A stretch of DNA of 64,000 nucleotides from an uncultured Gammaproteobacteria bacterium (GCA_964635715.1 CAZWNZ010000001.1:248122-312121); one strand, 5' to 3'. Positions 18,378-56,700 are shown, counted from the first letter of the stretch. Translations and numbers: made by a program. Notes: generated by a model from the sequence alone, not told the origin.

Positions 18378-19970
<1,593 letters not shown>

Positions 19971-21886: not shown

Positions 21887-21927
21887 TTTTCGATGAATTG
21901 TCAGTTTTGTAGTATTAGTTTTTTGCC

Positions 21928-21972
21928 CCCAAAAGGCCAACTTTGAAATTTAAGGTTGGCCTTTTTTCTTGG
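21928..21972. terminator. bidirectional intrinsic terminator between convergent genes
   Basis: aaaaggccaac...gttggcctttttt, with A/T runs on both sides. Confidence 0.45.
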
Positions 21973-21973
21973 C

Positions 21974-24109
21974 TCAAACCCCTTTTCTTGCCCAATGCTG
22001 TCTACTGGCTGCAATAACTTTTTCTTTATTTTGATTACTTGATATAGGCAAGGGGAGGGTGGTGGAAACAAAAGGTCTGGTAATCTGTCCGTCAATCGTC
22101 ATCTTGGTAGCAATCTGGTATTTTCCAAGATTGATCAAATCCTGTGCAGTGAAAACTTCGGCAAATTCTTTATTTAAAACGTCCGCGTCGTTTGCTCCAA
22201 CAGCAAAAGTCATAACAGTACCCGCATTTCCCAAAATTGCCCTTGTCACTTCCTCAGGAATCTGAGCCATGTATTGATTGGCAAGCATGATATCGAGTCT
22301 GTACTTTCTGGCCTCACTCATGATTTTGATAAAAGATCCTGTGGCAAAGTTTTGGAACTCGTCGACATAAAGATAAAAATCCCGCCTCTTTTCCTCATCC
22401 ATAGAAACTCTGTGCATAGCTGCAAGCTGGAATTTGGTAATAAGCATGGCGCCAAGAAGAGCCGCATTGTCCTCTCCAAGCCGACCCTGAGAAAGATTGG
22501 CAAGTAAGATTTTCCCGCCGTTCATAACATCATCCAGTTTAATTGAGCTTTTGGGCTGACCTATGACGCTTCTGATGAGAGGTGAGGCAACAAACTGCCC
22601 GACTTTATTTAAAATAGGGGAAATTGCCTCTTGTTGTAATTTCTCCGGCATTTTGTCAAACTCGTTAACCCAGAAATTTTTCAAAACTTCATCTTTAAGC
22701 TCCATTTCCACTTTGGTTCTGAAAGCTTTATTAGTTAGGATTAAAGGAACATCTTTCAGTGTTGAATTCGGAACTTGTGCAAGAGTTGAAAGGGAATTGC
22801 GAAGCACATATTCCAGTCTCGGGCCCCAGGAGAAGCCGAATATTTTATTGAAAATTGAAACAATTCCGGAAACCACAAGCTCCGCCTCTTCTTTGTTGGT
22901 TACCTCCAGGGGGTTAATTACAACGGGGTAGTTGATATCTGCGGGGTTAAAATAAATAACGTCATTAATTCTATGCTTGGGAATATAGTTTAAAATAATG
23001 TCGCAAAGATCTCCGTGAGGATCGATTATGGCCAAACCGCGATCTTTCTTAAGATCATCGATAGCCATATTGGCAATAAGAGTGGATTTACCTGTACCCG
23101 TTTTTCCGATTGCCCAAATGTGACGGCGCCTGTCAATATCTTTTATACCGAAAATTGTATCCTTGTTCTTAAATACAGTCTTGCCAAAGAAATTGACATG
23201 AGCGCGTTCTTCTTCACGGGTTGTGATTGCGTTCGGAAGGTTTTCAGGAGGTTCGGATAAAACTTTTGTGCCCCAAGCAATTCCTGTCGTTTTAATTTTT
23301 TCGGAAGGTAGATGCCATAGGGTAGCTAATTCTAATATGTTTAGGATATTGTTATCGGTTACTCGCCTTAAAAGAGTATTCTTTGAAACATTTGACGAAT
23401 TACGAATCTTGAATAATGAATTATGAATAGTGGAAAAATGGTTTGCATCTGCTCTGTTGAAAACTCCAAAAGCAGAACAAAGCTCTGTTAGGTATTTCTT
23501 CGTATTGTTTACCAGGCGAATGGATGTCTTAAAACCCGGGTAAGAAATTTTCTCAGTTATTATGTTTTTGTCCGATCTTGGCTGATAAGTTCCATCCTCA
23601 TTTTTGGTACCGCAATCGGCATAAGAAGCACCTTGCGACTGCCATTTAGTACTGATTGCCTCAAGAGCTATTTGGATCAAAACAACATCAGTTGGCTCAA
23701 CTTTTGATAGAACTGAGAGGACGGAAGAAAGAGGGTCGACATCTGTAAACTTATCATAAGTAGCAATAGGATAAAAATTTCCTTTCGAAAGCTTCAGCTC
23801 TTTAATGTCCAAGTTTGTGGCCTCCGCCAGCGGGTCTGCGACTTTTTCAATAACGACAAGTGGGTAGTTGCTTTGGATTTGAGCTTCCAAAAAAGGAACT
23901 AAAGAGGGATCACAAGTTATCAAAAATCTGATTTGTTGATTTACTGAGGCTATTTCAAGAGATAGGGATAAGGATTCTGTTCCAAGAAATTTTTGGAAAT
24001 TGGAGACGCCATTAATTTGGGTTAGAGCAGAAAGAAAAGTCTTCGCTGCTTCAGGAGTAACTTCCTGATTTCTTGGAAGCTTCAAAAAAAGTGTAGTAAG
24101 CTCGGACAT
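21974..24109 (-). CDS. VirB4/TraC-like type IV secretion ATPase (FtsK-HerA superfamily, DUF87/AAA_10-like)
   Basis: Walker A IGKTGTGKST; IIDPHGD; Walker B LYVDEFQNF followed by the ARKYRLDIMLANQ motif typical of VirB4/TraC; 711 aa, no TM. Confidence 0.65.
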   Translation of the reverse strand: MSELTTLFLKLPRNQEVTPEAAKTFLSALTQINGVSNFQKFLGTESLSLSLEIASVNQQIRFLITCDPSLVPFLEAQIQSNYPLVVIEKVADPLAEATNLDIKELKLSKGNFYPIATYDKFTDVDPLSSVLSVLSKVEPTDVVLIQIALEAISTKWQSQGASYADCGTKNEDGTYQPRSDKNIITEKISYPGFKTSIRLVNNTKKYLTELCSAFGVFNRADANHFSTIHNSLFKIRNSSNVSKNTLLRRVTDNNILNILELATLWHLPSEKIKTTGIAWGTKVLSEPPENLPNAITTREEERAHVNFFGKTVFKNKDTIFGIKDIDRRRHIWAIGKTGTGKSTLIANMAIDDLKKDRGLAIIDPHGDLCDIILNYIPKHRINDVIYFNPADINYPVVINPLEVTNKEEAELVVSGIVSIFNKIFGFSWGPRLEYVLRNSLSTLAQVPNSTLKDVPLILTNKAFRTKVEMELKDEVLKNFWVNEFDKMPEKLQQEAISPILNKVGQFVASPLIRSVIGQPKSSIKLDDVMNGGKILLANLSQGRLGEDNAALLGAMLITKFQLAAMHRVSMDEEKRRDFYLYVDEFQNFATGSFIKIMSEARKYRLDIMLANQYMAQIPEEVTRAILGNAGTVMTFAVGANDADVLNKEFAEVFTAQDLINLGKYQIATKMTIDGQITRPFVSTTLPLPISSNQNKEKVIAASRQHWARKGV

Positions 24110-24243
24110 ATTTCTATTATATATGGTTAATGGCTAATGGTTAATGGTTGATGGTTAAAGAATGATTGTGGAGCCTGTACCATAGATATCTAATTTCTAG
24201 ATACTTTTGATTGGCAAGGCTCCACAATGAGGAGGGGGAAATA

Positions 24244-24405
24244 TCTATGTTAAAAAAATAATTGCTATCACCGCAATCAGGATAACAATTGCCAATATGA
24301 TGCAAAAAACACCCGACCTTTTGAGTGATTTTATGAGGCACGCAATAAAAAAAATTGCGGCCAACGAAATTAAAACGGCGGCCGGGTTGAGTATTCTTCC
24401 TTCCA
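24244..24405 (-). CDS. small two-helix membrane protein (possible VirB2/VirB3-like), not in the ORF track
   Basis: AGGAGG RBS upstream of MEGRILNPAAVLISLAAIFF...; sits directly upstream of the VirB4-like gene. Confidence 0.3.
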
Positions 24406-24417
24406 TTTTTCCTCCTT

Positions 24418-24925
24418 TCAGCCAGTTTTGATTTGGTAGATTTTGTAACCCGAGCAGACTTTTACTAGAATATCATCCGTTTCCGGGCCGTGGGAACATG
24501 TGTCGGAAACAACAACCCAGTCAGGGTGTTTTTTGAGTTCTTCCTCATCCCTTTTTGTTATCTCGACCCTGATCTGACAGAATCTCCAGCTACAACCGCA
24601 TGTGATTTCTGACACTTTTCCAACCCACCTTTCTTTGTTTTGTTCAAAAAAAGATATGAACTTTATTATTAGTAGGACAACCCATGCACACGACATTTAG
24701 CCACATTCCATAACGGCTAATTTTATAGGTGAAGGTATTTCCCCGCCACTTCCGCAATCTCTCGTTCAACGTTTTTTCGAGGGATTCAATATTTTCTTGA
24801 CTGAGCACAACCATGTTGCCGTTCTCGTCATGAAATTTAAAAAATTTTTTATTGCCAGGATTCATTCTTGTACAGTATTTGATTGTGTCTGTACAACAAC
24901 AAGATCTGATGGGTATAGCTACCAT
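24418..24925 (-). CDS. Cys-rich hypothetical protein split into two overlapping frames (frameshift or pseudogene)
   Basis: ORFs 24644-24925 and 24418-24696 overlap by about 50 nt in different frames; strong GAGGAGGAG RBS at 24930. Confidence 0.3.
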
Positions 24926-25146
24926 TTTCTCCTCCTCTTTTAATTTTTAGGTACCTTCCAAAAAGCAAATTTTTTGAAATTGCTGCAAGTTTACTATTAT
25001 GGGGTAGGGAAGTCAAACTGGGTTAGTAGCTAGTGGTTAGTAGATAGGAGGCGGAGACAAAATTTGAAAAATGCACATAAGTAAAGAACAGTGAATTTAA
25101 CACTGTGGCTAACAAATCAACCTTATGTTAAAATATGCGTCGATGG

Positions 25147-25218
25147 GGGTGCGTGGCTCAGTGGTAGAGCGCGTTCCTGATAAGAACGAGGTCCATGGTT
25201 CGATCCCATGCGCACCCA
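25147..25218 (+). tRNA. tRNA-Ile (anticodon GAT)
   Basis: Cloverleaf folded by hand: acceptor GGGTGCG/CGCACCC, D arm GCTC-AGTGGTA-GAGC, anticodon loop CTGATAA, T arm CATGG-TTCGATC-CCATG. Confidence 0.9.
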
Positions 25219-25325
25219 CTAAATCTTCTCGTTCGGCATTTCGTTTTGCTCAATGAAAGAACGAGGTTGGGGAATGATCCTCTTTCGACAGGCTCAGGAT
25301 CATGACATGCGCACCCACCAATTAG
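25219..25325 (+). other. partial duplicate of the tRNA-Ile 3' half, ending ...catgcgcacccacca
   Basis: gaacgagg and catgcgcaccca of the tRNA recur 90-100 nt downstream around an 8-bp hairpin (atgatcct/aggatcat). Confidence 0.4.
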
Positions 25326-25609
25326 TTTAATTAGTTTTCTTCAGCGGTACCTTTCTTCCTTGGCAAAAAACACTATACACACCTTTAAAGGTCCGACCTT
25401 GTAAGGTGTGTAAAATCTAGAGTAGTCGGTTTGATTCTATTTGAATTTAGGGGTAGAATCGGGGTGTTTTCAATTTGCGGAAACAAAAATTGTCAGGAAT
25501 TATTTCCTGTTTTTATTTATCGGCTATAGCCTTGAGCGTAGTCGAAAGGTACTTTAACTTTTCAATCAAATTCATATTCAATTCTTTTTCAGAATGAGGA
25601 GGGAGAAAG

Positions 25610-25873
25610 ATGAAAACAGTAATGAGGGTAATTTGGATGGTTTTTGTGTTTTTGTTTGGGGAGGTGATTTTGATAACTATTTTAGGAGATGCTTTCTACC
25701 TCTGTTTTTATAACCACCTGGAATCTATTCCAAAAGGATTTGTCTTTTTAGGTGTGATTTTGTGGGCTCTATCAACATGGTTTTTAGTAGATGAAATAAA
25801 AAAAATGTGGAAGTGTGACCTGAAAAATACTAAGGATTATGACAAGATTTTGCCCCCAAGCTGTTTTAGCTGA
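25610..25873 (+). CDS. small hypothetical membrane protein
   Basis: GAGGAGGGAG RBS; 2 TM. Confidence 0.3.
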   Translation: MKTVMRVIWMVFVFLFGEVILITILGDAFYLCFYNHLESIPKGFVFLGVILWALSTWFLVDEIKKMWKCDLKNTKDYDKILPPSCFS

Positions 25874-25885
25874 GAAGGAGAAAAA

Positions 25886-26149
25886 ATGTCTTTTTTGACG
25901 AAATTAAAAAACTGGATTGGTATTTTTTCCCTGCAAATAAAATTAGGAAAAATTACCAGAAACGTTCAGAGACTGGAACAAGAGCCAGATATTTCGCAGG
26001 GTATGTTGGGATATGCGGTATATCTGAAAAATCAAAAGGAAAAAATACTTGTCCAAATATCCAAGTTAGAGGAGGAGAATTATGGAAAAAATAACGGTTT
26101 ATTTAAACGAATTAAAGAAGAGAGAAAGCCTGATTTGTTGTCTGAATAA
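25886..26149 (+). CDS. small hypothetical protein
   Basis: AAGGAG RBS; operon with its neighbours. Confidence 0.25.
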   Translation: MSFLTKLKNWIGIFSLQIKLGKITRNVQRLEQEPDISQGMLGYAVYLKNQKEKILVQISKLEEENYGKNNGLFKRIKEERKPDLLSE

Positions 26150-26405
26150 TGTTTCCTGGGGAGAAGGATACCACTCAAAGACAGCTTTCGGCAAATCCGA
26201 ACGGGTATCTTTTCCGGGGGACACAAACCTTTATTGGTGGGCTTTGGTTAATGATCTTGGTGCCATGGTTTTTGGTGTTCTCGAAGAAAGAACAGATAAA
26301 ATCATTATTATTGCCAACTGTGATCTTTCGGTTCGGCAAAAACTAATGGATGTCTTGGCCAATGTCTTTAAGGCCCCAGTTTTTTCAACCATAACGATAA
26401 ATTAG
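26082..26405 (+). CDS. small hypothetical protein
   Basis: GAGGAGGAG RBS; overlaps the previous ORF. Confidence 0.25.
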   Translation: MEKITVYLNELKKRESLICCLNNVSWGEGYHSKTAFGKSERVSFPGDTNLYWWALVNDLGAMVFGVLEERTDKIIIIANCDLSVRQKLMDVLANVFKAPVFSTITIN

Positions 26406-26628
26406 GAGGAAAGATGAGAAAAAATATCGGAAAGATTATCGCATGGTTTGTTGTGATTTTGTTCACCCTTTGTGCGATAGGTTCACTGCTTTTGTTCTAA
26501 AAGATATTTGATTGAAATTGTTGGGTAGTAGGCGGGAGCCGATCTTTGTAAAAAGACCGGCTCTTTTTTTGGCAAAATTACTCTTACATTAGAAGGGTGA
26601 AATCACACAGATTTATAATTTGTTGGTC

Positions 26629-26657
26629 TTGACGCCCAAATCCATTCAGGATATAAT
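26629..26657 (+). promoter_or_regulatory. sigma70-like promoter TTGACG-17-TATAAT inside the rRNA spacer
   Basis: Perfect 17-nt spacing; lies upstream of ORF 26815, tRNA-Ala, 23S and 5S. Confidence 0.5.
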
Positions 26658-26780
26658 ACGCTTACCTTGAAAAAGGTAAATCTTTTGAGTTCGGAATTTT
26701 TAATGAGAATCAACTTAATTTCTAAAAAACAAAGCGCGGCCCTGCGTGGTTAACGGAAATTAGTATCTTCTTTTTGAATT

Positions 26781-26808
26781 TACCGGCTCAAAAGCCGGTT
26801 TATTTTTT
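26781..26808 (+). terminator. hairpin plus T-run (attenuator or terminator) just before ORF 26815
   Basis: ccggctcaaaagccgg followed by tttatttttt. Confidence 0.35.
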
Positions 26809-26814
26809 GTCAAA

Positions 26815-27057
26815 ATGAAACACCTGTCCGACAAAGAAAAACTGGAAGCACTTTACATAAAGATAAATGAGGCTGAAACTAAATATCGGGAACGTCTGAA
26901 AAACTTCAGAGGTGTCCCGCACGAATCAGCCATGGGTGAACTTAATTTTTCCGAGCTTAAGGTTCGTGAAGATTTTGTTCGCTCTCTGAGGGAAGAGATC
27001 TCGCAATTAGAGAAAAAACTGGGACTGTCTACAAAATTGTCTCCGCATTTTCCCTAA
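26815..27057 (+). CDS. hypothetical protein encoded inside the rRNA spacer
   Basis: 80-aa ORF. Confidence 0.3.
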   Translation: MKHLSDKEKLEALYIKINEAETKYRERLKNFRGVPHESAMGELNFSELKVREDFVRSLREEISQLEKKLGLSTKLSPHFP

Positions 27058-27064
27058 TAGGTGA

Positions 27065-27137
27065 GGGCTCGAAGTTTATCTGGCTGAACACCTCATTTGC
27101 AATGAGGAGGTAGGCGGTTCGACCCCGCCCGAGTCCA
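27065..27137 (+). tRNA. tRNA-Ala (anticodon TGC) with a G3:U70 pair
   Basis: Acceptor GGGCTCG/CGAGTCC (G3-T70), D stem GTTT/GAAC, anticodon loop TTTGCAA, T arm GGCGG-TTCGACC-CCGCC. Confidence 0.8.
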
Positions 27138-27170
27138 CAAAATTTTTGAGTAGTGGAATATACCGCCACG

Positions 27171-27213
27171 GGGCTTAAAGGTAACTAAGTAGGTTCGATT
27201 CCTACTAAGTCCG
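27171..27213 (+). ncRNA. tRNA-like minihelix (acceptor stem plus T arm only) with G3:U70
   Basis: gggctta-aaggtaactaa-gtagg-ttcgatt-cctac-taagtcc-g; no D or anticodon arm. Confidence 0.3.
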
Positions 27214-27706
27214 CATTAATTCTGTTAGCGCAGAATTCTAGAACGTTAAAATTTGAAGATTTAAGGTTTTTTTAAAATGTGTAGGTAAGTGATAGGGAAT
27301 TTTAGATGAAGAAGTTTTATATTTCTTTTATCTTTTACCCTTTATCTTTTACCTATTATTAGAAGAGGAAGGTCGCGTCCCAAACTCGAATTTATTCGAG
27401 TTGTGTGGGATCGCAAGTAAACAACGCAGACAGTGAATGCCTTGCTTTTCGTCTCCGAAGAAGGACGTACATAGCCACGAAAGTCGCCGGTTAGCTGCTA
27501 CGAAGCTTTGACCCGACGGTGTCCGAATGGGGAAACCCATCCCGCTTTGCGGGATATCTTGAGGCCAAAATGTTGACGCAAGTTAATATATAACTTTAAG
27601 TATGGAAACCACCTGAACTGAAACATCTAAGTAAGGTGAGGAATATAAATCAACGAGATTCCGCCAGTAGCGGCGAGCGAAAACGGAACAGTCTAAACCA
27701 TTGTGC

Positions 27707-27835
27707 ATAGCACAAGGAATGTCACACAAATAAATACCAATAAACCAATAAATACCAATTTACAATGGAAACATTTAGAATTGGGCATTGGTGCACATTG
27801 GTACTTATTTGAAATTTGGCGTTTCCTGCGCTGTG
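27707..27835 (+). other. 23S intervening sequence 1 (5' domain)
   Basis: The 22-nt block cacaaggaatgtcacacaaata is identical to the 16S insertion; shares taccaat repeats and ggaaac...gggcattggt. Confidence 0.6.
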
Positions 27836-28029
27836 CAGGATGGGGTTGTAGGACTCTAATGTGAGATCTCTATTTTAGTAGTAGAACAGTCTGGAATGGC
27901 TGATCAAAGAAAGTGAAAATCTTGTATACAAAACTAAAATAGGCTCTAGGAGTATCCTAAGTACCACGGAACACATATTCTGTGGGAATCCGGGGGAACC
28001 ATCCTCCAAGACTAAATAAGACGAAAGAG

Positions 28030-28066
<37 letters not shown>

Positions 28067-28656
28067 CTGAGTGAGACACTCAATGAAATAGAACCTGAAA
28101 CTGTTTGCGGTCAAACCGTGAGAGCTGGTCGTAAGACTGGTGATCGCGTGCCTATTGAAGAATGAGCCGGCGAGTTTTCAGTTACTTCTTATGTCTAACT
28201 CCAATTTGGAGGGAGGCGAAGGGAAACCAAGTGTGAATAGCGCGTTTGGAGTAACTGGAAGACCCGAAACTGGGTGAGCTAACCATGAGCAGGGTGAGCT
28301 CCGATGAAAATCGGAGGGAGGCCCGAACCCGTTGTCGTTGTAATGACATGGGATGACTTGTGGTTAGGGGCAATATACTTATCGAACCCAGAGATAGCTG
28401 GTTCTCCCCGAAAGGTCTATGGGGACCGTGGTCCGTCACGTTCTGCTGGTTGTAGAGCACTGGCTGGGTTGGAGAGCGCAAGCAATTCAATCTAATCAAA
28501 CTCCGAATACTAGTGTGAGCTATCGGACTAAAAAGCCGCATCGGGCTAAGCTGATGCGACGAAAGGGAAACAACCCTTGACTCTCAGTTAAGGCCTCTAA
28601 ATTACATCTAAGTTTGAAAGGAAGTTTTCTTTCTCAGACAGCCAGGAGGTTGGCTC

Positions 28657-28694
<38 letters not shown>

Positions 28695-28771
28695 TGGTCG
28701 ATTGAGAGGATGCGCCTAAGATTTATCGAGGATAAGATGTATGCCGAAGCTAGAGATATCCGTGCCTTGCA

Positions 28772-28874
28772 CAGGAATGATTAATAAATACCAATAAACC
28801 AATAAGTATCAATCTCCAATTAAAACTGGAATTGGGAATTTGGAATTGGATTATTTGTAATTTGTCATTCCCGT
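28772..28874 (+). other. 23S intervening sequence 2 (helix-45 site)
   Basis: Inserted between ccgtgccttg and agagcgcgggtgtggtaggggagcgttcc; aataaataccaataaaccaataa is identical to IVS 1. Confidence 0.6.
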
Positions 28875-30263
28875 GCAGAGCGCGGGTGTGGTAGGGGAGC
28901 GTTCCAATTGCGGTGAAGGTGAACCGGAAGGTTTGCTGGAGCGGTTGGGAGTGAGAATGTCGGCTTGAGTAGCGTACAATACTAGTGAGAATCTAGTACG
29001 TCGAATGTCCAAGGTTTCCACTGCAAGATTCGTTCACAGTGGGTTAATCGGTTCCTAAGGCGAGGCCAAATGGCGTAGTCGATGGACAATTGGTTAAAAT
29101 TCCAATATATGTGTTAAATCGAAAGATCCCGCAAGGGATGAGCTAGGGATTGACTGAGCAGGAGTTTTGAAGCTTTTTCGTGAAGTAGAGTGCAGAAATC
29201 GAAGTAGTTCTGACTGGAAAATCCGTCAGAATGTTTAATTAAGATGGTGCAAAGTTCTCCGCGAGGAGGGCGATTTCAAACGCTTCAGCTTACAAGAAAA
29301 GATTCGTAGCGAGAGTTAACATATGCCGTACCGCAAACCAACACAGGTGGACTGGGGGAGCACCCTAAGACGATCGAGAGACAAATCCTCAAGGAACTCG
29401 GCAAAAAAACTACCCGTAACTTAGGGAAATGGGTTGTCCAGCGCAAGCTGGATTGCAACTAAAGTTTATTGGTCGACTGTTTATCAAAAACACAGGCCCG
29501 TGCAAAAGCGAAAGCTGAAGTATACGGGCTGACGCTTGTCCAGTGCCGGTAAGTTAAGAGGAGGGGTGTTCTGAACTTGTTTCAGGATGCTCTGAATTTA
29601 AGCTCCGGTGAACGGCAGCAGTAACTATAACTGTTCTAAGGTAGCGAAGTTCCTTGCCAGGTAAGTTCTGGCCCGCATGAATAGCGTAACGAGCTAATAA
29701 CTGTCTTGAGGGTTTACTCGGCGAAATAGCGATGGCTGTGAAGACGCGGCCTACTTCCACATGGACAAAAAGACCCCGTGGAGCTTTACTGCAGGTAGAT
29801 ATTGCTTTCATATTTTTTGATTGTCTAGAATAGGTGGGAGCCGCAAGGCGATCTTGTAATACCACTCGTTGAGAAATGTGAGGCTAACTCAATTCCGATG
29901 GAAACTCGGAAGAGGAACGTGTTTGCCGGGCAGTTTTACTGGGGCGGTACCCTGCCAAATTGTAACGCAGGGACGCAAAGGTTGGCTTTCTACCGATGGA
30001 AACGGTAGTTTTAAGCGTAAAGGTTTAAGCCAGCTTGACTGCGAGGGAGATGTCCCGAGCAGGTACGAAAGTAGGTCTTAGTGATCCTCCGAAGCACAAT
30101 GGGTGTGCTCGGAGCTTAATGGATAAAAGCTACCCCGGGGATAACAGAGTAGTCGCGCCCGAGCGTCCATAGCGACGGCGCGGTTCGCTACCTCGATGTC
30201 GGCTCATCACATCCTGGCGCTGAAGAAGGTGCCAAGGGTCGGTCTGTTCGCCCGTTAAAGTGA

Positions 30264-30301
<38 letters not shown>

Positions 30302-30428
30302 ACTCTATCCTGTGGAAGCGTTGGAATCTTGAGGAGAGCTGGGGACAGTACGAGAGGACCTCCCTGGAGGAATCCCTGGTGTGCCGGTTATTGCGTCAGC
30401 AGTAACGCCGGGTAGCTATATTCCTAAC

Positions 30429-30464
<36 letters not shown>

Positions 30465-30600
30465 TCCAAGATTAGGATTCCATATTAAATCCCCCGTAGA
30501 AGACGGGGTTGATCGGCAGGCACTGGAAGATCTGTAAGGGTTTAAGGTAACCTGTACGAATAGATTGATTCTTGCGATCCCACACATGTGGGGCGCGACC

Positions 30601-30718
30601 TTCCTTTTCTACGAAATAGTACAGAGTACAGGAGTACATAGTACTTAGAAAAACAAAAAATCTAACGTCTTAGTCTCTGTACTTTTGTACTTTGTACTAT
30701 GTACTAGTTTCAAGGCAA
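30601..30718 (+). repeat. 23S-5S spacer with inverted arrays of the AGTACAN heptad
   Basis: agtacagagtacaggagtacatagtact on the plus strand and tgtacttttgtactttgtactatgtact in inverted orientation. Confidence 0.5.
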
Positions 30719-30840
30719 TGTTCTGGTGGTCAGTGCGAAGTGGCACCACCTGATCCCTTTCCGAACTCAGAAGTGAAACGCTTTAGCGCAGACGATAGTT
30801 TACGGGCAACTGTACGCGAAAATATGTCACCGCCAGAACA
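30719..30840 (+). rRNA. rrf: 5S rRNA
   Basis: gttctggtggt...ccgaactcagaagtgaaacg...cgccagaaca. Confidence 0.9.
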
Positions 30841-35534: not shown

Positions 35535-36971
35535 GCATTTCACTCAAAATACGTTTGTCAGCAATGCGGTTATGAATCTACAGGCTGGATGGGCAAATGC
35601 CCCGAGTGCGGAACATGGAATTCTCTTGTTGAAACGGTAGTTGAAACAAATTCCAACTCACAATCTCCAAGTTCCAAAAAATTTTCAAATTCCAAATCAC
35701 AAACTATCAAACTTTCCGATATCAAATCTTCATCAATTAAGCGTATTTCGACCAATATTTCGGAACTGGATAGGGTACTTGGTGGGGGTTTAGTTCCCGG
35801 ACAAGCTGTTCTTATTGCAGGAGAACCGGGGATCGGCAAGTCTACTCTTCTTACCCAATTAGCAGCAGAGTTGTCAGTCGGAGTTAGTCAAAGTCGGTCG
35901 GCTGAGCCGTTAGTTAAAACTAGTCAGAAGTTAGCCAAAGTTAGCTATGATACTAACCGCGCTAGCGGACCAACTATGACTAATTTTAACCGAAAAACCG
36001 TTCTCTATGTTTGTGGTGAAGAATCATCCTCGCAGGTTGCTGTGAGAGCCAAAAGGCTAGGTGTAAAAGGTGAAAGTATAGAACTTTTAGAAGAGACTGA
36101 TGTTGATAGTGTGATCAATCAGCTATCAACAATTAACAATCAACTATCCGCTGTTATTGTTGATTCTATTCAAACTATGACTACAGGTGATTTAACGGGG
36201 ATGGCAGGAAGTGTTGGACAAGTACGAGAGTGTGCGTTTCGGTTGCTTAAAGCCGCCAAAGAGAAAAACATTCCTTTATTCCTGGTAGGGCATGTTACCA
36301 AAGAAGGAACGGTGGCCGGCCCTGCGGTACTGGCCCACATTGTTGACACAGTACTCTGGTTTGAAGGAGACAAGACTTTAACCACACGCATTTTGAGGGC
36401 CGTTAAAAATAGGTTTGGCCCCACAGATGAGGTTGGGGTATTTGAGATGGTAGATAGCGGATTAAAACCAATGGATAATATATCAAAAGCCTTTTTGGAG
36501 AAAGGTAAAAAGCAAGTTTCCGGAAGTATTGTGACGTCAGTTTTGCAGGGAACCCGCCCAATTTTAGTTGAAATTCAGGCTTTGGTTGTACCCACAAAAC
36601 TGGCCTTTCCGCGCCGTATTGCGCAAGGAATTGACTCAAGACGATTGGAACTCCTTTTGGCAGTATTAACAAGGCGCTCCGGACTCCCGCTTTATGATAG
36701 TGATGTTTTTATAAATGTTGCGGGAGGTTTCAAAATCATGGAGCCCGCGAGTGATTTGGCAATTTGTATCGCAATTGCCTCTGCTTTTTATGATAAACCC
36801 CTGTCCGGTAATATTATTGCGGTTGGGGAAGTAGGGCTTTTGGGAGAAATCCGGGAGGTAGTTGCAGAGGAAAAACGCATTAAGGAAGCTAAACGCTTAG
36901 GTTTTACTGAGGCTGTTTCCTCAAAAAATTTTGGATATCTTAGTCAAGTTGTGAATCGGTTGCTGAAGTAG
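35535..36971 (+). CDS. radA: DNA repair protein RadA/Sms carrying a ~40-aa in-frame insertion after Walker A
   Basis: Zinc finger CQQCGY...CPECGTW, Walker A GEPGIGKST, KNRFG motif, Lon-like C-terminal domain. Confidence 0.9.
   Translation, partial: AFHSKYVCQQCGYESTGWMGKCPECGTWNSLVETVVETNSNSQSPSSKKFSNSKSQTIKLSDIKSSSIKRISTNISELDRVLGGGLVPGQAVLIAGEPGIGKSTLLTQLAAELSVGVSQSRSAEPLVKTSQKLAKVSYDTNRASGPTMTNFNRKTVLYVCGEESSSQVAVRAKRLGVKGESIELLEETDVDSVINQLSTINNQLSAVIVDSIQTMTTGDLTGMAGSVGQVRECAFRLLKAAKEKNIPLFLVGHVTKEGTVAGPAVLAHIVDTVLWFEGDKTLTTRILRAVKNRFGPTDEVGVFEMVDSGLKPMDNISKAFLEKGKKQVSGSIVTSVLQGTRPILVEIQALVVPTKLAFPRRIAQGIDSRRLELLLAVLTRRSGLPLYDSDVFINVAGGFKIMEPASDLAICIAIASAFYDKPLSGNIIAVGEVGLLGEIREVVAEEKRIKEAKRLGFTEAVSSKNFGYLSQVVNRLLK
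35872..35992 (+). repeat. MITE-like repeat element inserted in-frame within radA
   Basis: gtcagtcggagttagtcaaagtcgg ... actaaccgcgctagcggaccaactatgactaattttaacc; near-identical copies at 44138-44215. Confidence 0.55.
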
Positions 36972-37497
36972 TGTTTTTGTCATAAAAACATCTAGTCATT
37001 ACCTCTGCATTTTCTGAGTATCCACTTAAGCATCCATATTCACGAGCCAAGGTTCCACCTTTGTCATAGCTTATTATTTTGGTTCCTACTGCTATTCCTA
37101 TGGCTATGGCAGAATTCATTTCATCGGCTCCGTAAACGCTGATAACTAAATCATCAATATGTATAGCTCCGTCGTGCTTTGGAAGTTCGTTATTCGGTTT
37201 ATTGAGTGAATCGCACCGTTCCAGATCCTGCCTCTGCGAATATGCATGTAATAAAGCCATGCGTTTTGAACTTTCACTGACGTTTTCTCCAATTTCCTCA
37301 GTTTTTATAAATGCTGAATTTTTCCAGGTAATAGATACGGCAAAGTTAATGCCATGAAATTTTGGCAGAGAATCAAGTGAATCACGTACAACTCGTGCCG
37401 AACCGACAATGTTATTGGCAAGAAACTTTTTCTCTTTAGATATTGTTTTTGATTTTTCAAAAGATAAGTTTTCCAACCCAAATATCTCTTTAAACAT
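36940..37497 (-). CDS. hypothetical protein
   Basis: 185-aa ORF; overlaps the radA 3' end. Confidence 0.3.
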   Translation of the reverse strand: MFKEIFGLENLSFEKSKTISKEKKFLANNIVGSARVVRDSLDSLPKFHGINFAVSITWKNSAFIKTEEIGENVSESSKRMALLHAYSQRQDLERCDSLNKPNNELPKHDGAIHIDDLVISVYGADEMNSAIAIGIAVGTKIISYDKGGTLAREYGCLSGYSENAEVMTRCFYDKNTTSATDSQLD

Positions 37498-37640
37498 ACT
37501 TGTATTATATTCTATAGTGTCAATATTAACAAGTTATCCACATTTATTTTTGAGGAATTTTTTTGCCCGAAAATACGGAATGAAAGCTAGTTAAAAAAAC
37601 TATGGGGAAGTATATTTTATAGTATATTTACGTTATAGGG

Positions 37641-37670
37641 TTTGACAAATTTGACAGCGGGGTGTAACAT
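37641..37670 (+). promoter_or_regulatory. putative promoter TTGACA-17-TAACAT
   Basis: Motif spacing; followed by ~660 nt lacking ORFs before the sortase gene. Confidence 0.35.
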
Positions 37671-38335
37671 TTCTTTGAACCTTGAAAATTAAGGGAGGAT
37701 ACCCGTCCTGACCTTACCGTTCGCCTTCAGGTACTATTCGTACACGGCCCACGGAGCAGTTTCAGGAGGGTTTCACAAATTGCTGAAGCTAATTTTGGCA
37801 ATTTGCTCAAAAAAAGAGCATCGCCATCGTTGGGTTCTCCTCTAAAATAACCTTAGCGGAACTCGCCACGAGTAGAGATGCTCTTTCAATTACTTAACCA
37901 GACCTTTCGTAAAAAATGTCTGGACATGGGATTTGTCTTGCGGACAGGAAACTTTACTAACAATCAAGACAAATCGTAATCAGACTAAAACGATTATCAT
38001 GGCTTGTCAAGCCCCTTTGAGTGGCAAAATTGGCTTTGGTAGGGACGGGTGGAATATAAGCGAAGCTTGGCACTGAGCGCATAGCGCTCATTGTAGGGCA
38101 AAAAAAAGAGAGCGCTTTGTTCTGGATTTGAGGGACGGGTGGAATTTAGGGCAGGAATTCTACCCGCTCCTCAAGCTTAGAATGGGCGCTCTTTTTTTGC
38201 GGAATTCTACATAGATCCTATGACAGGATTCAAGAGCACTCGCAATTCATTGCGAGGATGAATTGAACGCTGACAGGCGTTCTAACCAGAACGCCATTGG
38301 AGCCGATTTTTTGTGATTAAATTAATATAATCAAC

Positions 38336-39022
38336 ATGTCTGGATACAATTTTATAAATTTGATAGAAGGCATAACTCCCCAAGAGGTTAATGTTGTTGC
38401 GGCTTCAAAAAAGGAAGATACAGAGCCCAAAAAAAAGCGTTTTTCAATAAAATTGACCAAGATGCTGGCTTTAATTGGTATTGCTATTTTGTTGATTTAT
38501 TTTGCTCCGATAGTATTTAATTTTATTAAATACAGACTTTCCAACAACGAAGTTAATAAGCTTACCGAGGCGGCTCAAAACGCCACAGAAAGAGCCTTGC
38601 CGCCTCCGGACCCAACTCTGCCCAAAACCAACCGTTTGTCCATCCCTTCAATTGGTGTGGATACGGAGATAGAGGAGTCGACCTACGACAATTACGAGAC
38701 AGCACTCAGGAAGGGGGTCTGGAGAGTATCCAATTTTGGTGAACCTGACATAACAGGGGCTCCGATTATTCTAGCTGCTCACAGGTTCGGATATCTGGCT
38801 TGGACTAATTCATACAGGCACTATAACTCTTTTTACAACCTACCAAAAGTTAAAGAGGGAGATATTGTTACCATAGCCTGGGAGCAAAGGGAGTATAGAT
38901 ACGGTGTTTATAAAACTGAGCAGGGCGAGGAAATTACCGATTACTCAGCTGATCTTATTCTTTATACATGCGAAAGCTTAAGTGGTAGTGAGAGGATTTT
39001 TGTATACGCAAAACTGATTTAG
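38336..39022 (+). CDS. sortase (cysteine transpeptidase)
   Basis: N-terminal TM; catalytic His in ILAAHRFGY; TLxTC motif LILYTCESL; RLSIPSIGVDTEIEE beta-strand signature. Confidence 0.75.
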   Translation: MSGYNFINLIEGITPQEVNVVAASKKEDTEPKKKRFSIKLTKMLALIGIAILLIYFAPIVFNFIKYRLSNNEVNKLTEAAQNATERALPPPDPTLPKTNRLSIPSIGVDTEIEESTYDNYETALRKGVWRVSNFGEPDITGAPIILAAHRFGYLAWTNSYRHYNSFYNLPKVKEGDIVTIAWEQREYRYGVYKTEQGEEITDYSADLILYTCESLSGSERIFVYAKLI

Positions 39023-39049: not shown

Positions 39050-39310
39050 ATGAGATACAATGCAGCCCTGATGAAAAAGTTAATAGCGATAGTACTTAGT
39101 ACTATGTACTTAGTACTTGGCGCAAACACAGTCAAAGCTGAAGACACAGTTACCGTCTGCACCCAGTATTACGGGGGCGGAGTTGTTTGTGGAGTTCACA
39201 CCCCTGTTGAAACCGGCATTGCAGACAACATTCCTCTTATAGCTTCAGGTTTTCTTGGCGCCAGCGGCGTTCTTGCATACTTGTCAAGAAAATTCAAAAA
39301 AACCGAATAA
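39050..39310 (+). CDS. small secreted sortase-substrate-like protein
   Basis: Signal peptide; C-terminal TPVETG, then a hydrophobic segment, then SRKFKKTE. Confidence 0.45.
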   Translation: MRYNAALMKKLIAIVLSTMYLVLGANTVKAEDTVTVCTQYYGGGVVCGVHTPVETGIADNIPLIASGFLGASGVLAYLSRKFKKTE

Positions 39311-39410
39311 GTAGTTAGTTAGAATCAGTCGAAGTTGGTCAAAGTTAGAGATTTGCTCTAACCAATTTCAACCAACTCCGACCAGTTTTAACTAAAAACT
39401 AAAACTAGGG
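39311..39410. repeat. palindromic copy of the MITE-like element
   Basis: gtcgaagttggtcaaagttagag and its reverse complement ctctaaccaatttcaaccaactccgac. Confidence 0.5.
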
Positions 39411-39672
39411 TTCTTTAACAAATCGAGGCAAAGCAAAGCGGAGTCCCTCTATAATTTTGGCACAAAGCGTGAACGAATAGTTCCAAAAAGCTGAGTGCGA
39501 AAATATGTGGGACAAAATTCTTTGGCAGATTATTAATCTGACGGTGAGATTCTGAAAATTAGAAGCTTAAGTTATTTTTTATTTTTCGTGTTTAGTTTTC
39601 AGACACTCACCGTTAGGTGGGTTCTCTGGCCAGAGAAATTTTATTTCAATCACACAAATAAGGAGGTGTGAG

Positions 39673-43803: not shown

Positions 43804-44142
43804 ATGGAAAAACTTAGAATCTATCAAACAGCTTTGGATTTAGTTTTGGAAATCTATAAGCTCATACAGCAAGATTCAAAACTTGCTAGAGATTGGTCGC
43901 TTTGCGATCAAATAAAGAGAGCATCTATTTCTGTGGTTGCCAATATCGCTGAAGGATATCTAAGATCCAAAAAACAATTCAAAAATTACTTACAAATAGC
44001 CTCAGGTTCAGCTAATGAAGTTGTAGCTCACTTGCAAGTGATAACAAAAGTTTATGGAAATAATACCGATAAATTACAAGAATCATACAAAGTTCTTGCA
44101 CGTCAAATAGGTGCATTCTCCAAGACTCTCGGCCAGAGCTAG
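43804..44142 (+). CDS. four-helix-bundle protein (TIGR02436, '23S rRNA intervening sequence protein')
   Basis: VANIAEGYLRSKKQFKNYLQIASGSANEV signature; flanked by repeat copies at 43768-43800 and 44138-44215. Confidence 0.8.
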   Translation: MEKLRIYQTALDLVLEIYKLIQQDSKLARDWSLCDQIKRASISVVANIAEGYLRSKKQFKNYLQIASGSANEVVAHLQVITKVYGNNTDKLQESYKVLARQIGAFSKTLGQS

Positions 44143-51897: not shown

Positions 51898-53745
51898 ATG
51901 CCCAAAAATACATATACAGTTAAAGAGGTTGCCAATCTTCTGGAATTTTCTACAAATACAGTTTACAAGTATCTTGATGATGGCAGTATTAAGTCGGTTC
52001 GTTTTGGGAGTGAGGGCCGATTCAGGATTCCCAGGACAGAAGTCGAACGTCTTCTTCAAGAGAGAGGGAAAACTTTACCTGAAGATTCAACCATATCAAA
52101 AAACCAAAATTTACATGGAATAAGAGGAATCCCTAGTTTATTTGATTGGTTTGTTGCATTTTTATCTATTTCGATAGGGTTTTCAATTTTTATCTTTCCT
52201 GTTCCAAGCGCTGTTCGGGTGGTCTTTGATCTAAATAAGTTTGTCATTCCGCTTCAGGTGATTTTATTGCTTGGTGGTTTTCTCATCTTGGTCTTGGATA
52301 TGTTTAGGATGCATGACAGCCGCCTACGCAAATCTATAAATTTAATTGTTGGAATTGACTACTTGGTAACAGCTCTTGTGTTTGCTTTTGCGGACAATTT
52401 TCCCTTGACCGTCGGTTATTTGGCGGTTGCATTTATTGTTATATTGTCAGTTTTTATAAAAATGGGCCAATATACAAGATTTCTGCTTTTTATAAACCTA
52501 TTGCTTGTTTTTCTGGGGATAGGAGTTTTGGGTTGGCCTGATACGTTTTTTCTTGCCGGTGTAATCGGAGTAAATTCAAAAAACTTAATAATTTTCTTTT
52601 CGATATGGTCACTTTTGATGATATTTAATGTTTACATGACATATTTTGCAATCAGAAAAAATAAACACCTTGTTTGGTTTCTTGCATTTCCAACAGCTCT
52701 AACATCTCTTTTGTATGCAACGATTAGTTTTACACAAGGGCTTTGGGCTAAGGCGATTTATTGTGTTGTTTTGTCGTCTTTTGCCGTAATTTTCCCCTTT
52801 GCTGACGAATTTGAAGCATTTACTCTGAAGTCAAAAAAAGAGGTGGCTGCCAGTTTTGCATGGCTTCTTGGTCTTTTCCTGGTCGGATCACTCATGCTTT
52901 ACTATATCTTTCGTTCATTTCAAAGTTATGGCTTCTTAGAACTGACTAATAGAGTCGATACCGCTAGTGATATTGTCACAAATTTCATGGATGGAAATAT
53001 CGCAAAGATCTCTGCATTTGCTGTCGACGAGGAGTTGATCGGTGCTATAGAAAACTATTCCGGGGACAATATCAATTTGGCAAATAATAAATTGAAACAA
53101 CTATACCAAGCGTCCAATTGGTCGATTCGAAGAGTGGTGTTAGTTGATAAGAACGGGATAATTCTCGATACATATCCTCTGAACCCATCAAGTCAGGGTG
53201 TAGATATTAGTAAACGTGACTATTTTGAAAGCGTTAAGGTAGGTGGTCAAACTTTCGTGTCGGGGATCGAGCAACCAAGCTCATCAGGACTCAGCCCTGT
53301 GGTTTTGGTTTCAGTTCCCATAATCGATTCTAGCGGAGATTTTTTGGGAGTTGTTATGGGAGATACCGATTTGGATGAACTTACAAGAAGAGTTAATCAA
53401 ATTAAATTTGGACAAAGTGGAAGTTATTTATTAGTAGATCAATTGGGTAAATATATCATTCCACCAACTAAGGATCAGATAATGGCAAAAGCCTCTGCCG
53501 GAAGTCCCGCATCGATGGTAGTTTTGGGTGAAAAAGGTACTTTGCAAGGAGAAGATTCTTTGGGAGAACTTTCTTTAATTGCCTATGTAAAAGTTAATAA
53601 ATACAGTTGGGGTATAGTGGCTCAACAACCGGTTGATGAGGCATTCAATCCATATAGCAAAACTGTCTTTATCACGTTTCTGATATATGTAACAGCAGGG
53701 GTAGGAAGTTTAATTCTTGTATTTTCGTCACAGAGAAAGCAATAA
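51898..53745 (+). CDS. fusion protein: excisionase-family HTH, then a polytopic membrane domain, then an extracytoplasmic Cache-like sensor domain and a final TM
   Basis: N-terminal VKEVANLLEFSTNTVYKYLDDGSIKSVRFGSEGRFRIPRTEVERLL (HTH_17 / excisionase-like); about 10 TM; the C-terminal ~230 aa look like dCache; last TM VFITFLIYVTAGVGSLILVF. Confidence 0.5.
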   Translation: MPKNTYTVKEVANLLEFSTNTVYKYLDDGSIKSVRFGSEGRFRIPRTEVERLLQERGKTLPEDSTISKNQNLHGIRGIPSLFDWFVAFLSISIGFSIFIFPVPSAVRVVFDLNKFVIPLQVILLLGGFLILVLDMFRMHDSRLRKSINLIVGIDYLVTALVFAFADNFPLTVGYLAVAFIVILSVFIKMGQYTRFLLFINLLLVFLGIGVLGWPDTFFLAGVIGVNSKNLIIFFSIWSLLMIFNVYMTYFAIRKNKHLVWFLAFPTALTSLLYATISFTQGLWAKAIYCVVLSSFAVIFPFADEFEAFTLKSKKEVAASFAWLLGLFLVGSLMLYYIFRSFQSYGFLELTNRVDTASDIVTNFMDGNIAKISAFAVDEELIGAIENYSGDNINLANNKLKQLYQASNWSIRRVVLVDKNGIILDTYPLNPSSQGVDISKRDYFESVKVGGQTFVSGIEQPSSSGLSPVVLVSVPIIDSSGDFLGVVMGDTDLDELTRRVNQIKFGQSGSYLLVDQLGKYIIPPTKDQIMAKASAGSPASMVVLGEKGTLQGEDSLGELSLIAYVKVNKYSWGIVAQQPVDEAFNPYSKTVFITFLIYVTAGVGSLILVFSSQRKQ

Positions 53746-53785
53746 ACCGACAAATAAATTGGAAAAACAAAAGTTAAAAAATAAA

Positions 53786-56700
53786 ATGGCGGGAAAAAAG
53801 GAAAAATATCAAGCGGGAATAACACCGCTTTTAGTTTTAATAACAGTGGCAACATCTTCAATCCTGGTGTTTACCGGTGGATTAACGTTTAATAATTTGA
53901 AAAACAAGGGAATATTAAATTTTACGGATCCAACTCTTAGAAATATTATTAGCCAACAAGCTGATTATTTGGATTCCTCCAAGCTTAACAAGTCACGCAT
54001 TGAAGGAGGCCTTGTTGGAACAGTACTTTTGCCGGACGGATCATACTCGGCTTATAAGATTCTGGATGGGAACATAGAAAGTAAAGGATCGAAGTTTACC
54101 GGTGAGGTAAGGATTTCATTTTTTTCCGATGATGTAGGGCTTAGTAATTACACAGACGGAAACATTAACCCATTTTATTTAATGGATGGGACTAAAACGG
54201 TGGGGGTAATTGTAGACAGGATGCTTGCGAATTTGAACGATGGGGATACAAGTCATGCAATTAAAATATTAAAAGGAACCGTTAAAAACAATTCTCTTAC
54301 AGGAGAATTTGTAGCCCAGACGTTGGATACAGGATATTATATTGGAGGTTTTGTTGAGGATGATGGTCGAATAACGAGTGCTACAGTACTCACCGGTGCT
54401 CCGAGGCTTACGGAAGCTCAGATTTCGATAGCAGAAAATGCTCTTTCAGTTCTGCCTTTATTTAAAAATGTTACCGCTGACCTTGCCACACCTAGCGATG
54501 CCAACATTTTAGGAGAGTCAACCATTGCTACATCAAAATCTGATTTAGGGAAGCTAAATAAGCCGGTTTTTAATAAAAAAACAGGTACATGGACTTTCGT
54601 TGGGTCAGGAGATGGGGGAGCGGTTTCAACCTCTGCAATGCAGGGAGTTGTGAATTATATTCAAAATATCGCCGAAACCATTTCGACATCGCCTTCTGCA
54701 GGACAGGTTGTACAGCAAATTGTCCAGAATGTTGTTCAGGGTATAAGTGAAATAAAAAGTGCAAATTCAAAACTAACTGTATCGACAGAAAACAATGTCT
54801 CAACTCTTTCACTTGATCTATCCGGGATTACAGCATCGGGGGTAAATGACGGATCAGTTAATCCCTCAGGACTCGTTCATTCAAATACCCCCATAGACGG
54901 CCAGTGCTTGACCTACAACAGTTCTACAGGAGGTTTTACATGGAGTTCTTGCGGTTCGGGTGGAGGAGGAACAATAACCGATGTAATAGCCGGTGATGGT
55001 CTGGTGGGCGGAGGAACAACCGGAAGTATTGACTTGGCGATTAATCCGCAAACAGGCGGGGGATTGGAAGCGGCCACGTCAGGAATTTCTTTAAACAGAG
55101 AATGTGCAGATGGAGAAATTCTGAAATGGACAGAAAGCACCTCCTCTTGGGATTGTGCTGCAGACAACGGAGGAGTGGGGGGGGGAGTTTCAACTCTCCA
55201 AGTTGACGACTCGACCATTGTTTCGTCAGCAACTGTGATTGATTTTTTGGGTTCAGATTTTGATTTAACAAATTCGCCGACTGGTGAGGGTAATTTGTCA
55301 ATTGACTACACTAACTCCAAAATAGTCAGAAGTGATCAAAATCAATCAATAAACGGCACCTGGACATTCTCTACGGCTCCTGTTATCTCAACAATTTCAA
55401 ATACTGGAGTCCTGACGCTTCCGACTTCAACAGATACTCTTGTAGGCAGAAATACCAGCGACATATTGACCAATAAAACAATCACAGCGGGATCAAATAC
55501 TATTTCGGGTCTTACAGCAAGTAATCTAACCGCCGGTGATTTTTCGACTAAGATTAATTCCGGTACTTATTCAATTAATATTTCGGGCAATGCCGGAACT
55601 GTTACAAATGGTATTTATACAACAGGAAGTTATTCCAACCCTTCCTGGATCACAAGTCTTTCTCCTGCAAAAGTTCTTCCCGACCAAACAGGAAACAATG
55701 GAAAGGTCCTTAGTACAAATGGTTCGGCTTTGTCCTGGATCACCGATTCTTCAGGGGTTGCCTGGGGAGCAATCACAGGGACTTTGTCAGACCAGACAGA
55801 TTTAAATACAGCCCTTTCAGGAAAACTTTCAACAACTGGATCTGCCGCCAATTTGACCAATTTCCCGACATTCAATCAAAACACAACTGGAACTGCAAGT
55901 AATATCACAGGAGTACTTGGTGCCATATCATTTCCGGCTCTTGATGGAGATGTGACAACTATACAGGGAGATCTGACAACAACAATTGCCAGTGGGGCAG
56001 TAACTTTAGGTAAGATGTCCAGTTTGGCGGCAAATTCAATAATCGGTAATAATACGGGAAGCTCGGCAACACCGGTTGCATTAACAACCACACAAGTTAA
56101 GTCTTTGTTATCAATTGCAAATACTGATGTGTCAGGATTGGGTACAATGTCTACCCAAAATGCAAATAACATATCCATTACGGGCGGAAGCATCTCTGGG
56201 CTTAGCTCAGTTGGGGCGACTACGTTCACGGGTGCATTGACGGGTAATGCAAGTAGTGCCACAACTGCCACTACCGCAACCACAGCCAACGCTCTCGCCA
56301 ATTCAGATTCTGCGGGTCAATCCGCAATCACAGCCATTAATTCGGCTACTGCGGGCACCCTTAACACAGCACGTCTTAACTCGTCTGTTACAACCCAGGG
56401 AAATACATTTAACGGAGTTTCCCAACTGGTTAAACTTGACACATCAGGATATCTTCCGACTATTAATGGATCATTATTAACAGGACTTGCCAAATCTCAA
56501 GTTGGCCTTTCTTTAGTTGAAAATACAGCCCTTTCTACTTGGGCGGGGACTACTAATGTAAATACAATTGCGGATAAAACAGTCACTTTAGCCAGAATGG
56601 CTGATATGGCAACTGCGTCATTCCTCGGAAGAAATACTGCAGGAACAGGATCACCTGAAGTTCTATCAATTTCGACTGCTAAATCAATACTATCCCTTTC

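Follow-up and report, generated by a model that had tools for sequence, protein, structure and literature searches.

Large bacterial RNAs and a candidate from Woesebacteria

The large bacterial RNAs known as OLE, the raiA motif, GOLLD, ROOL and HEARO share a recognisable build: many hairpins, long near-invariant stretches, and a distribution limited to one lineage. OLE-type RNAs also keep a fixed position by envelope-related genes, possess a promoter and a terminator of their own, and have functions that cannot be deduced from sequence. These traits return, with promoter and terminator as predictions, in an RNA element that we describe here from the region upstream of a sortase gene in a 64,000-nucleotide (nt) stretch of DNA (GCA_964635715.1, CAZWNZ010000001.1:248122-312121, deposited under uncultured Gammaproteobacteria), called the window throughout. 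Unlike OLE-type RNAs, the element belongs to a phylum of the Candidate Phyla Radiation (CPR), its minimal form is smaller (~200-300 nt), its best-conserved part is the predicted terminator hairpin at the 3' end, and no evident partner protein gene adjoins it.

Members of the CPR, or Patescibacteria, have genomes of about 1 Mb and have shed many functions otherwise held to be essential. Their regulatory and structural RNAs are a field in which, to our knowledge, almost nothing is known. The source genome of the window is Candidatus Woesebacteria, a group of ultra-small bacteria within the Microgenomatia of the CPR; its sortase has about 1,200 homologues, and the few that come with source names are labelled Candidatus Woesebacteria. 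We think it somewhat probable that the region upstream of the sortase gene is itself a gene, one for a discrete, trans-acting and stable RNA, undescribed before, of Woesebacteria and related Microgenomatia.

A conserved element between radA and a sortase gene

A sequence-only reading of the window had singled out an open-reading-frame (ORF)-free region at 37560-38335, 5' of the sortase gene, as a candidate non-coding RNA or long leader. Position and lack of ORFs hold, and the true gap is longer, covering 838 nt at 37498-38335. No conserved ORF lies inside it and, as had been stated for 37600-38335, none exceeds 60 aa, the largest measuring 47 aa. On the right the gap ends at the ATG (38336) of the plus-strand sortase gene (38336-39022, Pfam PF04203), and on the left at a minus-strand gene for 185 aa (36940-37497). 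A homologue search with the 185-aa protein returned only a 99%-identical copy of itself, so that we treat it as an orphan of no use for synteny; similarity of this kind was otherwise limited to weak tblastn or by-eye matches at L007 4693-5199 and L037 2233-2874 (L numbers denote the compared loci). The orphan gene sits between radA and the RNA, and its reading frame shares 32 nt with the end of radA.

For comparison, one genome per GTDB species was scanned with a sortase alignment, which yielded 80 loci; these belong to Woesebacteria and to other Microgenomatia, along with a few mislabelled metagenome-assembled genomes. Intergenic DNA just upstream of the sortase gene, on the same strand, matches the element in 46 of the 80 by blastn and nhmmer, and a covariance model of the 3' hairpin, here called P7, added the more distant members L028 and L078, bringing the family to 48. 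Each locus holds a single copy, and nhmmer finds one copy in the window. The order of genes is kept as S1 - radA - RNA - sortase - 86-aa protein - ... - 968-aa membrane protein.

The core of the RNA (37808-38024) is 76-89% identical at the DNA level to closer relatives over ~215 nt, whereas the coding DNA of sortase, radA and S1 at the same loci reaches only 65-75% in its best-aligned parts. An RNA of 200-640 nt that is held at one position in some fifty species, and more tightly than the DNA of radA, S1 or sortase, is therefore likely to have an important role. Outside these loci, metagenome contigs scanned with the P7 pattern GGGTGGNNNTNGGGCAGGNNNNCTACCC gave five matches, all attributable to chance in GC-rich, apparently coding DNA. 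A blastn-short comparison of the RNA with the rest of the window, rRNAs included, gave nothing above noise and thus no rRNA mimicry.

Folding and covariation

The plus strand of 37675-38205 has a minimum free energy (MFE) of -197.1 kcal/mol. Dinucleotide shuffles of it reach -146.1 +/- 5.8 (z = -8.7), and not one of 100 folds as well; the minus strand reaches z = -6.6. Comparative evidence comes from alignments that were built with MAFFT or on anchors and that support four helices: the 5' domain hairpin HP1, an optional hairpin, HP3 and P7.

P7 carries the strongest signal. In a gapless alignment of 46 sequences, pairing over its 26 pairs reaches 93.2%, compared with 44-55% in slid controls, and both sides have changed in 19 of the 26 (273 such cells), a level equalled in none of 500 shuffles. 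HP1 gives a similar result in 28 distinct sequences: its 20 lower pairs are 89% paired (slid controls 35-53%), with both sides changed in 10 pairs and again 0 of 500 shuffles doing as well. The strong conservation and covariation seen in 48 syntenic loci settle the question of whether the region is conserved in relatives, which it clearly is.

Which strand functions can also be read from P7. It holds two conserved G.U pairs, which would be A.C on the opposite strand, and its covariance model finds one plus-strand match per locus at 50-85 bits and scores 20-36 bits on the minus strand. Both observations identify the plus strand as the functional one.

When RNAalifold was applied to the full-length MAFFT alignment, only P1 (the basal helix of HP1), HP3 and P7 were recovered. 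The inner HP1 pairing that the program proposed (UCGU/ACGA, GGGUU/GACUC) was rejected by eye, as it leaves C.A mismatches in more than 10 sequences; these stem from a U-to-C change at the fourth position (37830), and the P1b/P2 model of HP1 covaries instead. A brute-force scan over all pairs of alignment columns was too noisy for use.

Architecture of the RNA and its promoter

The promoter reported by the sequence-only reading as TTGACA-17-TAACAT is present at 37642-37670 and conserved in relatives. An alignment of 12 loci shows no variation in the -35 hexamer or in its 5' flank GGGTTTGACA, while the -10 varies (TAACAT, TAGTAT, TACACT, TAATAT and others) and always keeps TANNNT at the 17-nt spacing. 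An invariant -35 with a variable TANNNT is how a promoter evolves, unlike an RNA helix. The start of transcription would thereby fall near 37677; the shortest members, L009 and L018, have the conserved core directly next to the -10.

Upstream of the promoter, the block 37534-37640 looks like a conserved regulatory region. The exact DnaA-box-like 9-mer TTATCCACA, an element also written (T/A)TATCCACA, occurs in 17 loci (among L004-L019, L022, L025, L034 and L041) about 100 nt (98-109) 5' of the promoter anchor TATAGGGTTTGACA, and no second perfect copy exists anywhere in the window. Variants of the small CCG-N6-CGG palindrome, namely CCCG/TGGG, GCC/GGC and TGCC/GGCA, stay complementary as judged by eye, unscored, and the upstream alignment conserves ACTATrGG ... 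GTTATrGGgTTTGACA.

Table 1 Features of the RNA locus in window coordinates.
Feature	Position	Strand	Remarks
DnaA-box-like perfect 9-mer TTATCCACA	37534-37542	+	Role putative
CCG-N6-CGG small palindrome/hairpin	37567-37578	+	In conserved block upstream of promoter
CTATRGGG / TTATRGGG motifs, two copies	37600-37607, 37633-37640	+	Second copy abuts -35
Sigma-70-type promoter	-35 TTGACA 37642-37647, 17-nt spacer, -10 TAACAT 37665-37670	+	10 of 12 consensus positions
5' extension module	37677-37806	+	Absent or short in most relatives; segment also given as 37688-37806
A7 run	37809-37815	+	Nearly invariant across the family; 5' edge of conserved core
HP1, 5' domain hairpin	37813-37886	+	Near-invariant sequence; also in MFE fold
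Optional hairpin CCAGAC...GUCUGG	37898-37923	+	Lacking in many distant members
HP3, stem GAUUUGUCUUG/CAAGACAAAUC	37930-37975	+	Encloses near-invariant GGACAGG (37942-37948)
Joining region	37976-38013	+	Conserved AGACUA (37982-37987), then small hairpin
Window-specific insertion	38024-38110	+	Lacking in most relatives; first AGGGACGGGUGGAAU copy 38041-38055, palindrome hairpin 38075-38089
P7, long 3' hairpin/intrinsic terminator	38103-38198	+	26 conserved bp: 38121-38146 with 38156-38181
Tail	38199-38313	+	Shared with L014 only, 81% identity; three small hairpins
TATAAT -10 candidate	38326-38331	+	4 nt before sortase ATG 38336; no Shine-Dalgarno sequence

The RNA core is a row of local hairpins. 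The A7 run at its 5' edge could pair with the U-run of the terminator, 37803-37819 being complementary to 38188-38204; both partners are invariant. HP1 is made up of P1 (AAAGAGCAUC/GAUGCUCUUU), a 4-bp P1b, CG/CG, P2 (UGGN/NCCA), a 3-nt bulge and an apical P3 that is variable and covaries freely. The optional hairpin covaries as well (CGAAGC/GCUUCG, CCAAAC/GUUUGG, CCAGGU/ACCUGG). Changes in the HP3 stem run from G-C to A-U, and from G-C to A-U/G.U; its loop is exactly the 7-nt GGACAGG in minimal homologues, GGACAGG is base-paired with a local CUUGUCC in some lineages, and the hairpin is missing in L028. In the joining region, the hairpin GGC-UUGUCAA-GCC (38001-38013) presents a conserved GUCAA element, and a pseudoknot between GACAG of HP3 and UUGUC of this next hairpin is possible, both partners again being invariant.

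P7 ends the row of hairpins. Its loop UAGGGCAGG (38147-38155) is almost invariant, with the form U(A/U)GGGCAGG and the invariant core GGGCAGG, so that HP3 and P7 both display a near-identical G-rich heptamer, GGRCAGG. The hairpin gggtggaatt/aattctaccc noted from the sequence is present in it (38138-38166). A long stem AAAAAGAGAGCGC/GCGCTCTTTTTTT had also been described, ending in a T7 run at about 38212; the strands do pair, 38103-38115 with 38186-38198, forming the lower stem of P7, and the run lies at 38192-38198. A run of at least four T starts within 45 nt past P7 in 39 of 46 loci, which gives P7 the shape of an intrinsic terminator. The P7 model also matches, with 25.8 bits (E 4.5e-5), a hairpin of Microgenomates GW2011_GWF2_46_18 (L063 6839-6911) whose loop is AAGGGCAGGU; it stands downstream of the sortase-substrate gene, not upstream of the sortase gene.

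RNA gene or sortase leader

A predicted promoter and terminator of its own across species, together with a structure backed by covariation, argue for a stand-alone non-coding RNA. The behaviour of the sortase gene points in the same direction. In 22 of 46 loci the sortase ATG is preceded by a strong -10, often TGn-extended, that ends 4-13 nt from it, where shuffling leads one to expect 7.3 +/- 2.3 (maximum 16 in 1000), and only 4 of the 46 have a sequence resembling a Shine-Dalgarno (SD) site before the gene. The proximity of the -10 and the rarity of SD sites suggest that sortase is transcribed from a promoter of its own into an mRNA with little or no leader, and in the window TATAAT is probably that promoter. 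Other genes of the window, for example the one at 39673, contrast with the sortase gene in having a strong AAGGAGGTG. L006, L008 and L010 have a full predicted TTGnnn-17-TATAAT promoter between RNA and sortase, L003 and L014 have a near match to one, and in L037 the RNA, with its own promoter and terminator, lies 2.6 kb from the sortase gene with an opposite-strand gene in between. Loci in which a separate sortase promoter is clear conserve the RNA just as well, so attenuation in cis cannot be all that the RNA does. Of the two possibilities that the sequence-only reading had left side by side, non-coding RNA or long leader, a discrete RNA gene thus fits better than a pure leader.

Several observations weigh against a separate RNA gene. 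Start site, 3' end and stability of the RNA, like the sortase promoter, are predicted from sequence. The base of P7 is separated from the sortase ATG by a median of only 32 nt, and a convincing separate sortase promoter was not found in 24 of 46 loci. L009, L012, L018, L022 and L039 have no U-run, which implies that the RNA is there co-transcribed with sortase or runs into the sortase promoter. Synteny with sortase holds down to ~43% sortase identity and survives an inversion of radA in L041, a persistence that would also suit a role in cis. Finally, the analysis brought out no partner protein or target for the RNA, and a conserved CCUGYCC, the complement of GGRCAGG, is absent from the downstream operon of the 46 loci and from the rRNAs of the window.

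These points lead to the main contender, a cis-acting leader in which the RNA would sense a metabolite, a protein or a tRNA and set the read-through at P7 into the genes for sortase and its PVETG substrate; we regard this as possible, if well short of probable. The locus has what attenuation leaders have: a promoter, a long structured RNA, an intrinsic terminator and a same-strand start codon within tens of nt. In 48 loci the RNA is on the sortase strand directly upstream of the gene, most have a hairpin and U-run just 5' of the start codon, the gap to the ATG is 45 nt or less in 26 of 46, and L009 and L012, which lack the U-run, show GAGG 14 nt before the ATG. The gene downstream encodes a sortase substrate and would complete a coherent operon, and the duplicated P7 strands of the window (37701-37713, 38041-38055, 38131-38146, 38160-38170) permit alternative pairings. 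Those pairings, however, fall in lineage-specific insertions, and no conserved antiterminator partner for the P7 strands is seen in minimal members, although mutually exclusive helices were not sought systematically. Unlike attenuation leaders and riboswitch expression platforms, the terminator is conserved in stem and loop sequence, its upper hairpin and loop being the most conserved part of the RNA; moreover, the RNA is conserved equally well in the roughly half of loci that have a separate sortase -10 or full promoter, often without SD, and in L037 it is physically apart from sortase. Rfam gives no riboswitch or T-box match (RF00230 none at E <= 10, with sortase as the downstream gene), and GGGUGG in P7 and UGGN/NCCA in HP1 resemble a T-box only superficially. 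We know of no class of riboswitch-controlled genes that includes sortases. Control in cis is possibly part of a dual role.

Two further explanations touch the nature of the element itself. That it is no RNA at all, and instead a DNA-level element (a regulatory region, an operator array or an origin-like region with a DnaA box) or a small protein, has a next to negligible chance of being right: the perfect TTATCCACA and the other upstream motifs are conserved at fixed spacing, and UUGUCAA is palindromic as DNA, but compensatory changes maintain 26 stacked pairs including the conserved G.U, the covariance model prefers one strand, loop lengths vary by non-multiples of 3 and no ORF exceeds 47 aa. 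An origin of replication was rejected, the 64 kb holding one perfect DnaA box and no cluster. A diverged housekeeping RNA (RNase P, signal recognition particle (SRP), 6S or transfer-messenger RNA (tmRNA)) missed by standard models in the CPR is very improbable. Single copy, strong conservation, and a promoter and terminator as in a stable RNA gene would suit it, and the loop UAGGGCAGG resembles AUAGGGCAGG of E. coli M1 RNA, a likeness that is not a test. At the gathering threshold, though, Rfam 15 matches in the window are confined to rRNA and tRNA, with no RNase P, SRP, 6S or tmRNA, and at E <= 10 the window region, L018 and L020 gave microRNA-like hairpin noise only; the RNase P models RF00010 and RF00011 had no match in these scans, which leave scores below ~12 bits unreported. 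ARAGORN finds three tRNAs and no tmRNA in the window, and neither CR-I GNAANNUCNGNG, CR-V ACNNNANNNNGNNUA nor a long-range P4-type helix is visible by eye in the family alignments, in agreement with the failure of the sequence-only reading to see signatures of RNase P, tmRNA or SRP. All supported helices are local, giving a row of hairpins and not a rod of the SRP or 6S type, and minimal members are simple hairpins of ~200-250 nt, shorter than any bacterial RNase P RNA. Diverged RNase P RNAs do exist in circular CPR genomes, where the RF00010 threshold had to be lowered to 5 bits, yet they remain recognisable, with features kept, in all 35 of these genomes including Microgenomatia (PMC8172020); the supplements of that study come without RNase P coordinates. 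The Rfam 15 covariance models of OLE, GOLLD, ROOL, HEARO and raiA have no match either, and a description of the element did not come up in literature searches. With neither an Rfam or ARAGORN match nor a published description, we treat it as a new family.

How the RNA might work

If the region is an RNA gene as we favour, transcription would run from about 37677 and mostly stop at 38198, releasing a discrete RNA of ~525 nt, or of ~200-300 nt in minimal relatives. The RNA would act independently, in the role of a scaffold or a binding partner, and the GGRCAGG motifs, the near-invariant internal loops of HP1 and the G.U pairs of P7 could serve as recognition surfaces for protein, nucleic acid or tertiary contacts. 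Sortase would usually form a separate, nearly leaderless transcription unit that may also receive read-through. A G-rich motif repeated in two hairpins (GGACAGG, GGGCAGG) calls to mind the repeated GGA loops of the sponge RNAs CsrB and RsmZ; unlike these, the element has only two motifs and GGA is not conserved in the second, so the likeness is a lead only.

A more far-reaching proposal, which we consider rather unlikely, is that the tiny genomes of Woesebacteria have retained a novel class of large functional RNA, a ribonucleoprotein or ribozyme of the OLE kind, linked by the sortase/PVETG locus to biogenesis of the cell surface and growing by duplication of helix strands and by a ~60-nt module inserted at different sites. 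The family in any case joins the few large RNAs of bacteria that have no assigned function. It gives the study of RNA-based biology in Woesebacteria a starting point, can be searched by covariance model, and adjoins a sortase/substrate pair that probably builds a surface structure for the episymbiotic lifestyle.

Lineage-specific growth in this genome

The version of the RNA in this genome measures 525-640 nt and contains lineage-specific insertions. The repeats and nested hairpins that first drew attention to the region are, as comparison of the aligned sequences indicates, of this kind: duplicated strands and inserted modules have enlarged a smaller conserved core. The sequence-only reading had listed two copies of AGGGACGGGTGGAAT; both are there, the second at 38131 as given and the first at 38041 instead of 38044. 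Its perfect palindrome gagcgcatagcgctc is found at 38075-38089. Among relatives, promoter, core and 3' hairpin are conserved in dozens, whereas the first 15-mer, the palindrome and the pairing of 37701-37713 are mostly absent.

The 5' extension begins with a start-proximal GAACNUUGAAA, followed by ACCCGUCCUGA (37701-37711), which can pair locally with UCAGGAGGGU (37762-37771, as read from the sequence) or over a long range with 38041-38050. In the MFE fold 37701-37713 pairs with the 38041-38055 region and so closes the whole core. This 5' module is common to L011, L015, L016, L022 and L026. Its inner block of 56 nt is 93% identical to a block in L016 that has another position, inside a P7-like hairpin. 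A structured module of ~60 nt (CCUUACCGUUCGCCUUCAGGUACUAUUCGUACACGGCYCACGGAGC) can be followed through 37707-37762 of the window, L016 5612-5667 and L011 5295-5376 with 84-93% identity between genomes, and it behaves as if it were an insertable RNA module.

Duplication of P7 strands accounts for other parts. AGGGACGGGUGGAAU at 38041-38055 duplicates the 5' strand of P7, ACCCGUCC in the 5' segment resembles its 3' strand, and a partial repeat of that 3' strand, GGAAUUCUAC (38201-38210), is part of the tail. The tail ends in UUGGAGCCGAUUUUUU (38297-38312); the same GGAGCCGATTTTTTGTGATTAAAT follows P7 directly in L024 and L026, which marks UUGGAGCCGAUUUUUU as a relic of the ancestral terminator. 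The locus thus exemplifies how an RNA can grow by copying its strands and taking in modules. There is also a direct repeat of 12 nt, AAnATGTCTGGA (37913-37924 and 38333-38344), by which the 5' strand of the optional hairpin is complementary to the first sortase codons. It is not conserved elsewhere; we regard it as probably due to chance and discarded the idea that hairpin and gene start pair.

Neighbouring features of the window

The sortase gene is followed by an ORF for 86 aa (39050-39310), conserved in most loci, whose product has a signal peptide, ~30 mature residues, PVETG, a hydrophobic segment and an RKFKK tail. From this layout the protein would be a minimal sortase substrate. A further ORF-free gap of ~360 nt (39311-39672) lies 3' of the substrate gene and has short tandem motifs and a long inverted repeat, GTCGAAGTTGGT...ACCAACTCCGAC; a terminator or a second RNA element are possible readings.

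The rRNA genes (18374-30838) have an unusual arrangement: 16S (18374-19969) is separated from 23S (27410-30580) by 7.4 kb that hold tRNA-Ile, tRNA-Ala and several ORFs, the longest of 711 aa. An insertion in 23S is suggested by its match, which exceeds the 2925-nt model by about 250 nt. At a great distance from 23S, an ORF for 112 aa (43804-44142) matches PF05635, the 23S rRNA intervening-sequence protein family, as annotated on the identical contig L001. A single ORF for 3189 aa (53717-63286) takes up 9.6 kb at the right end of the window.

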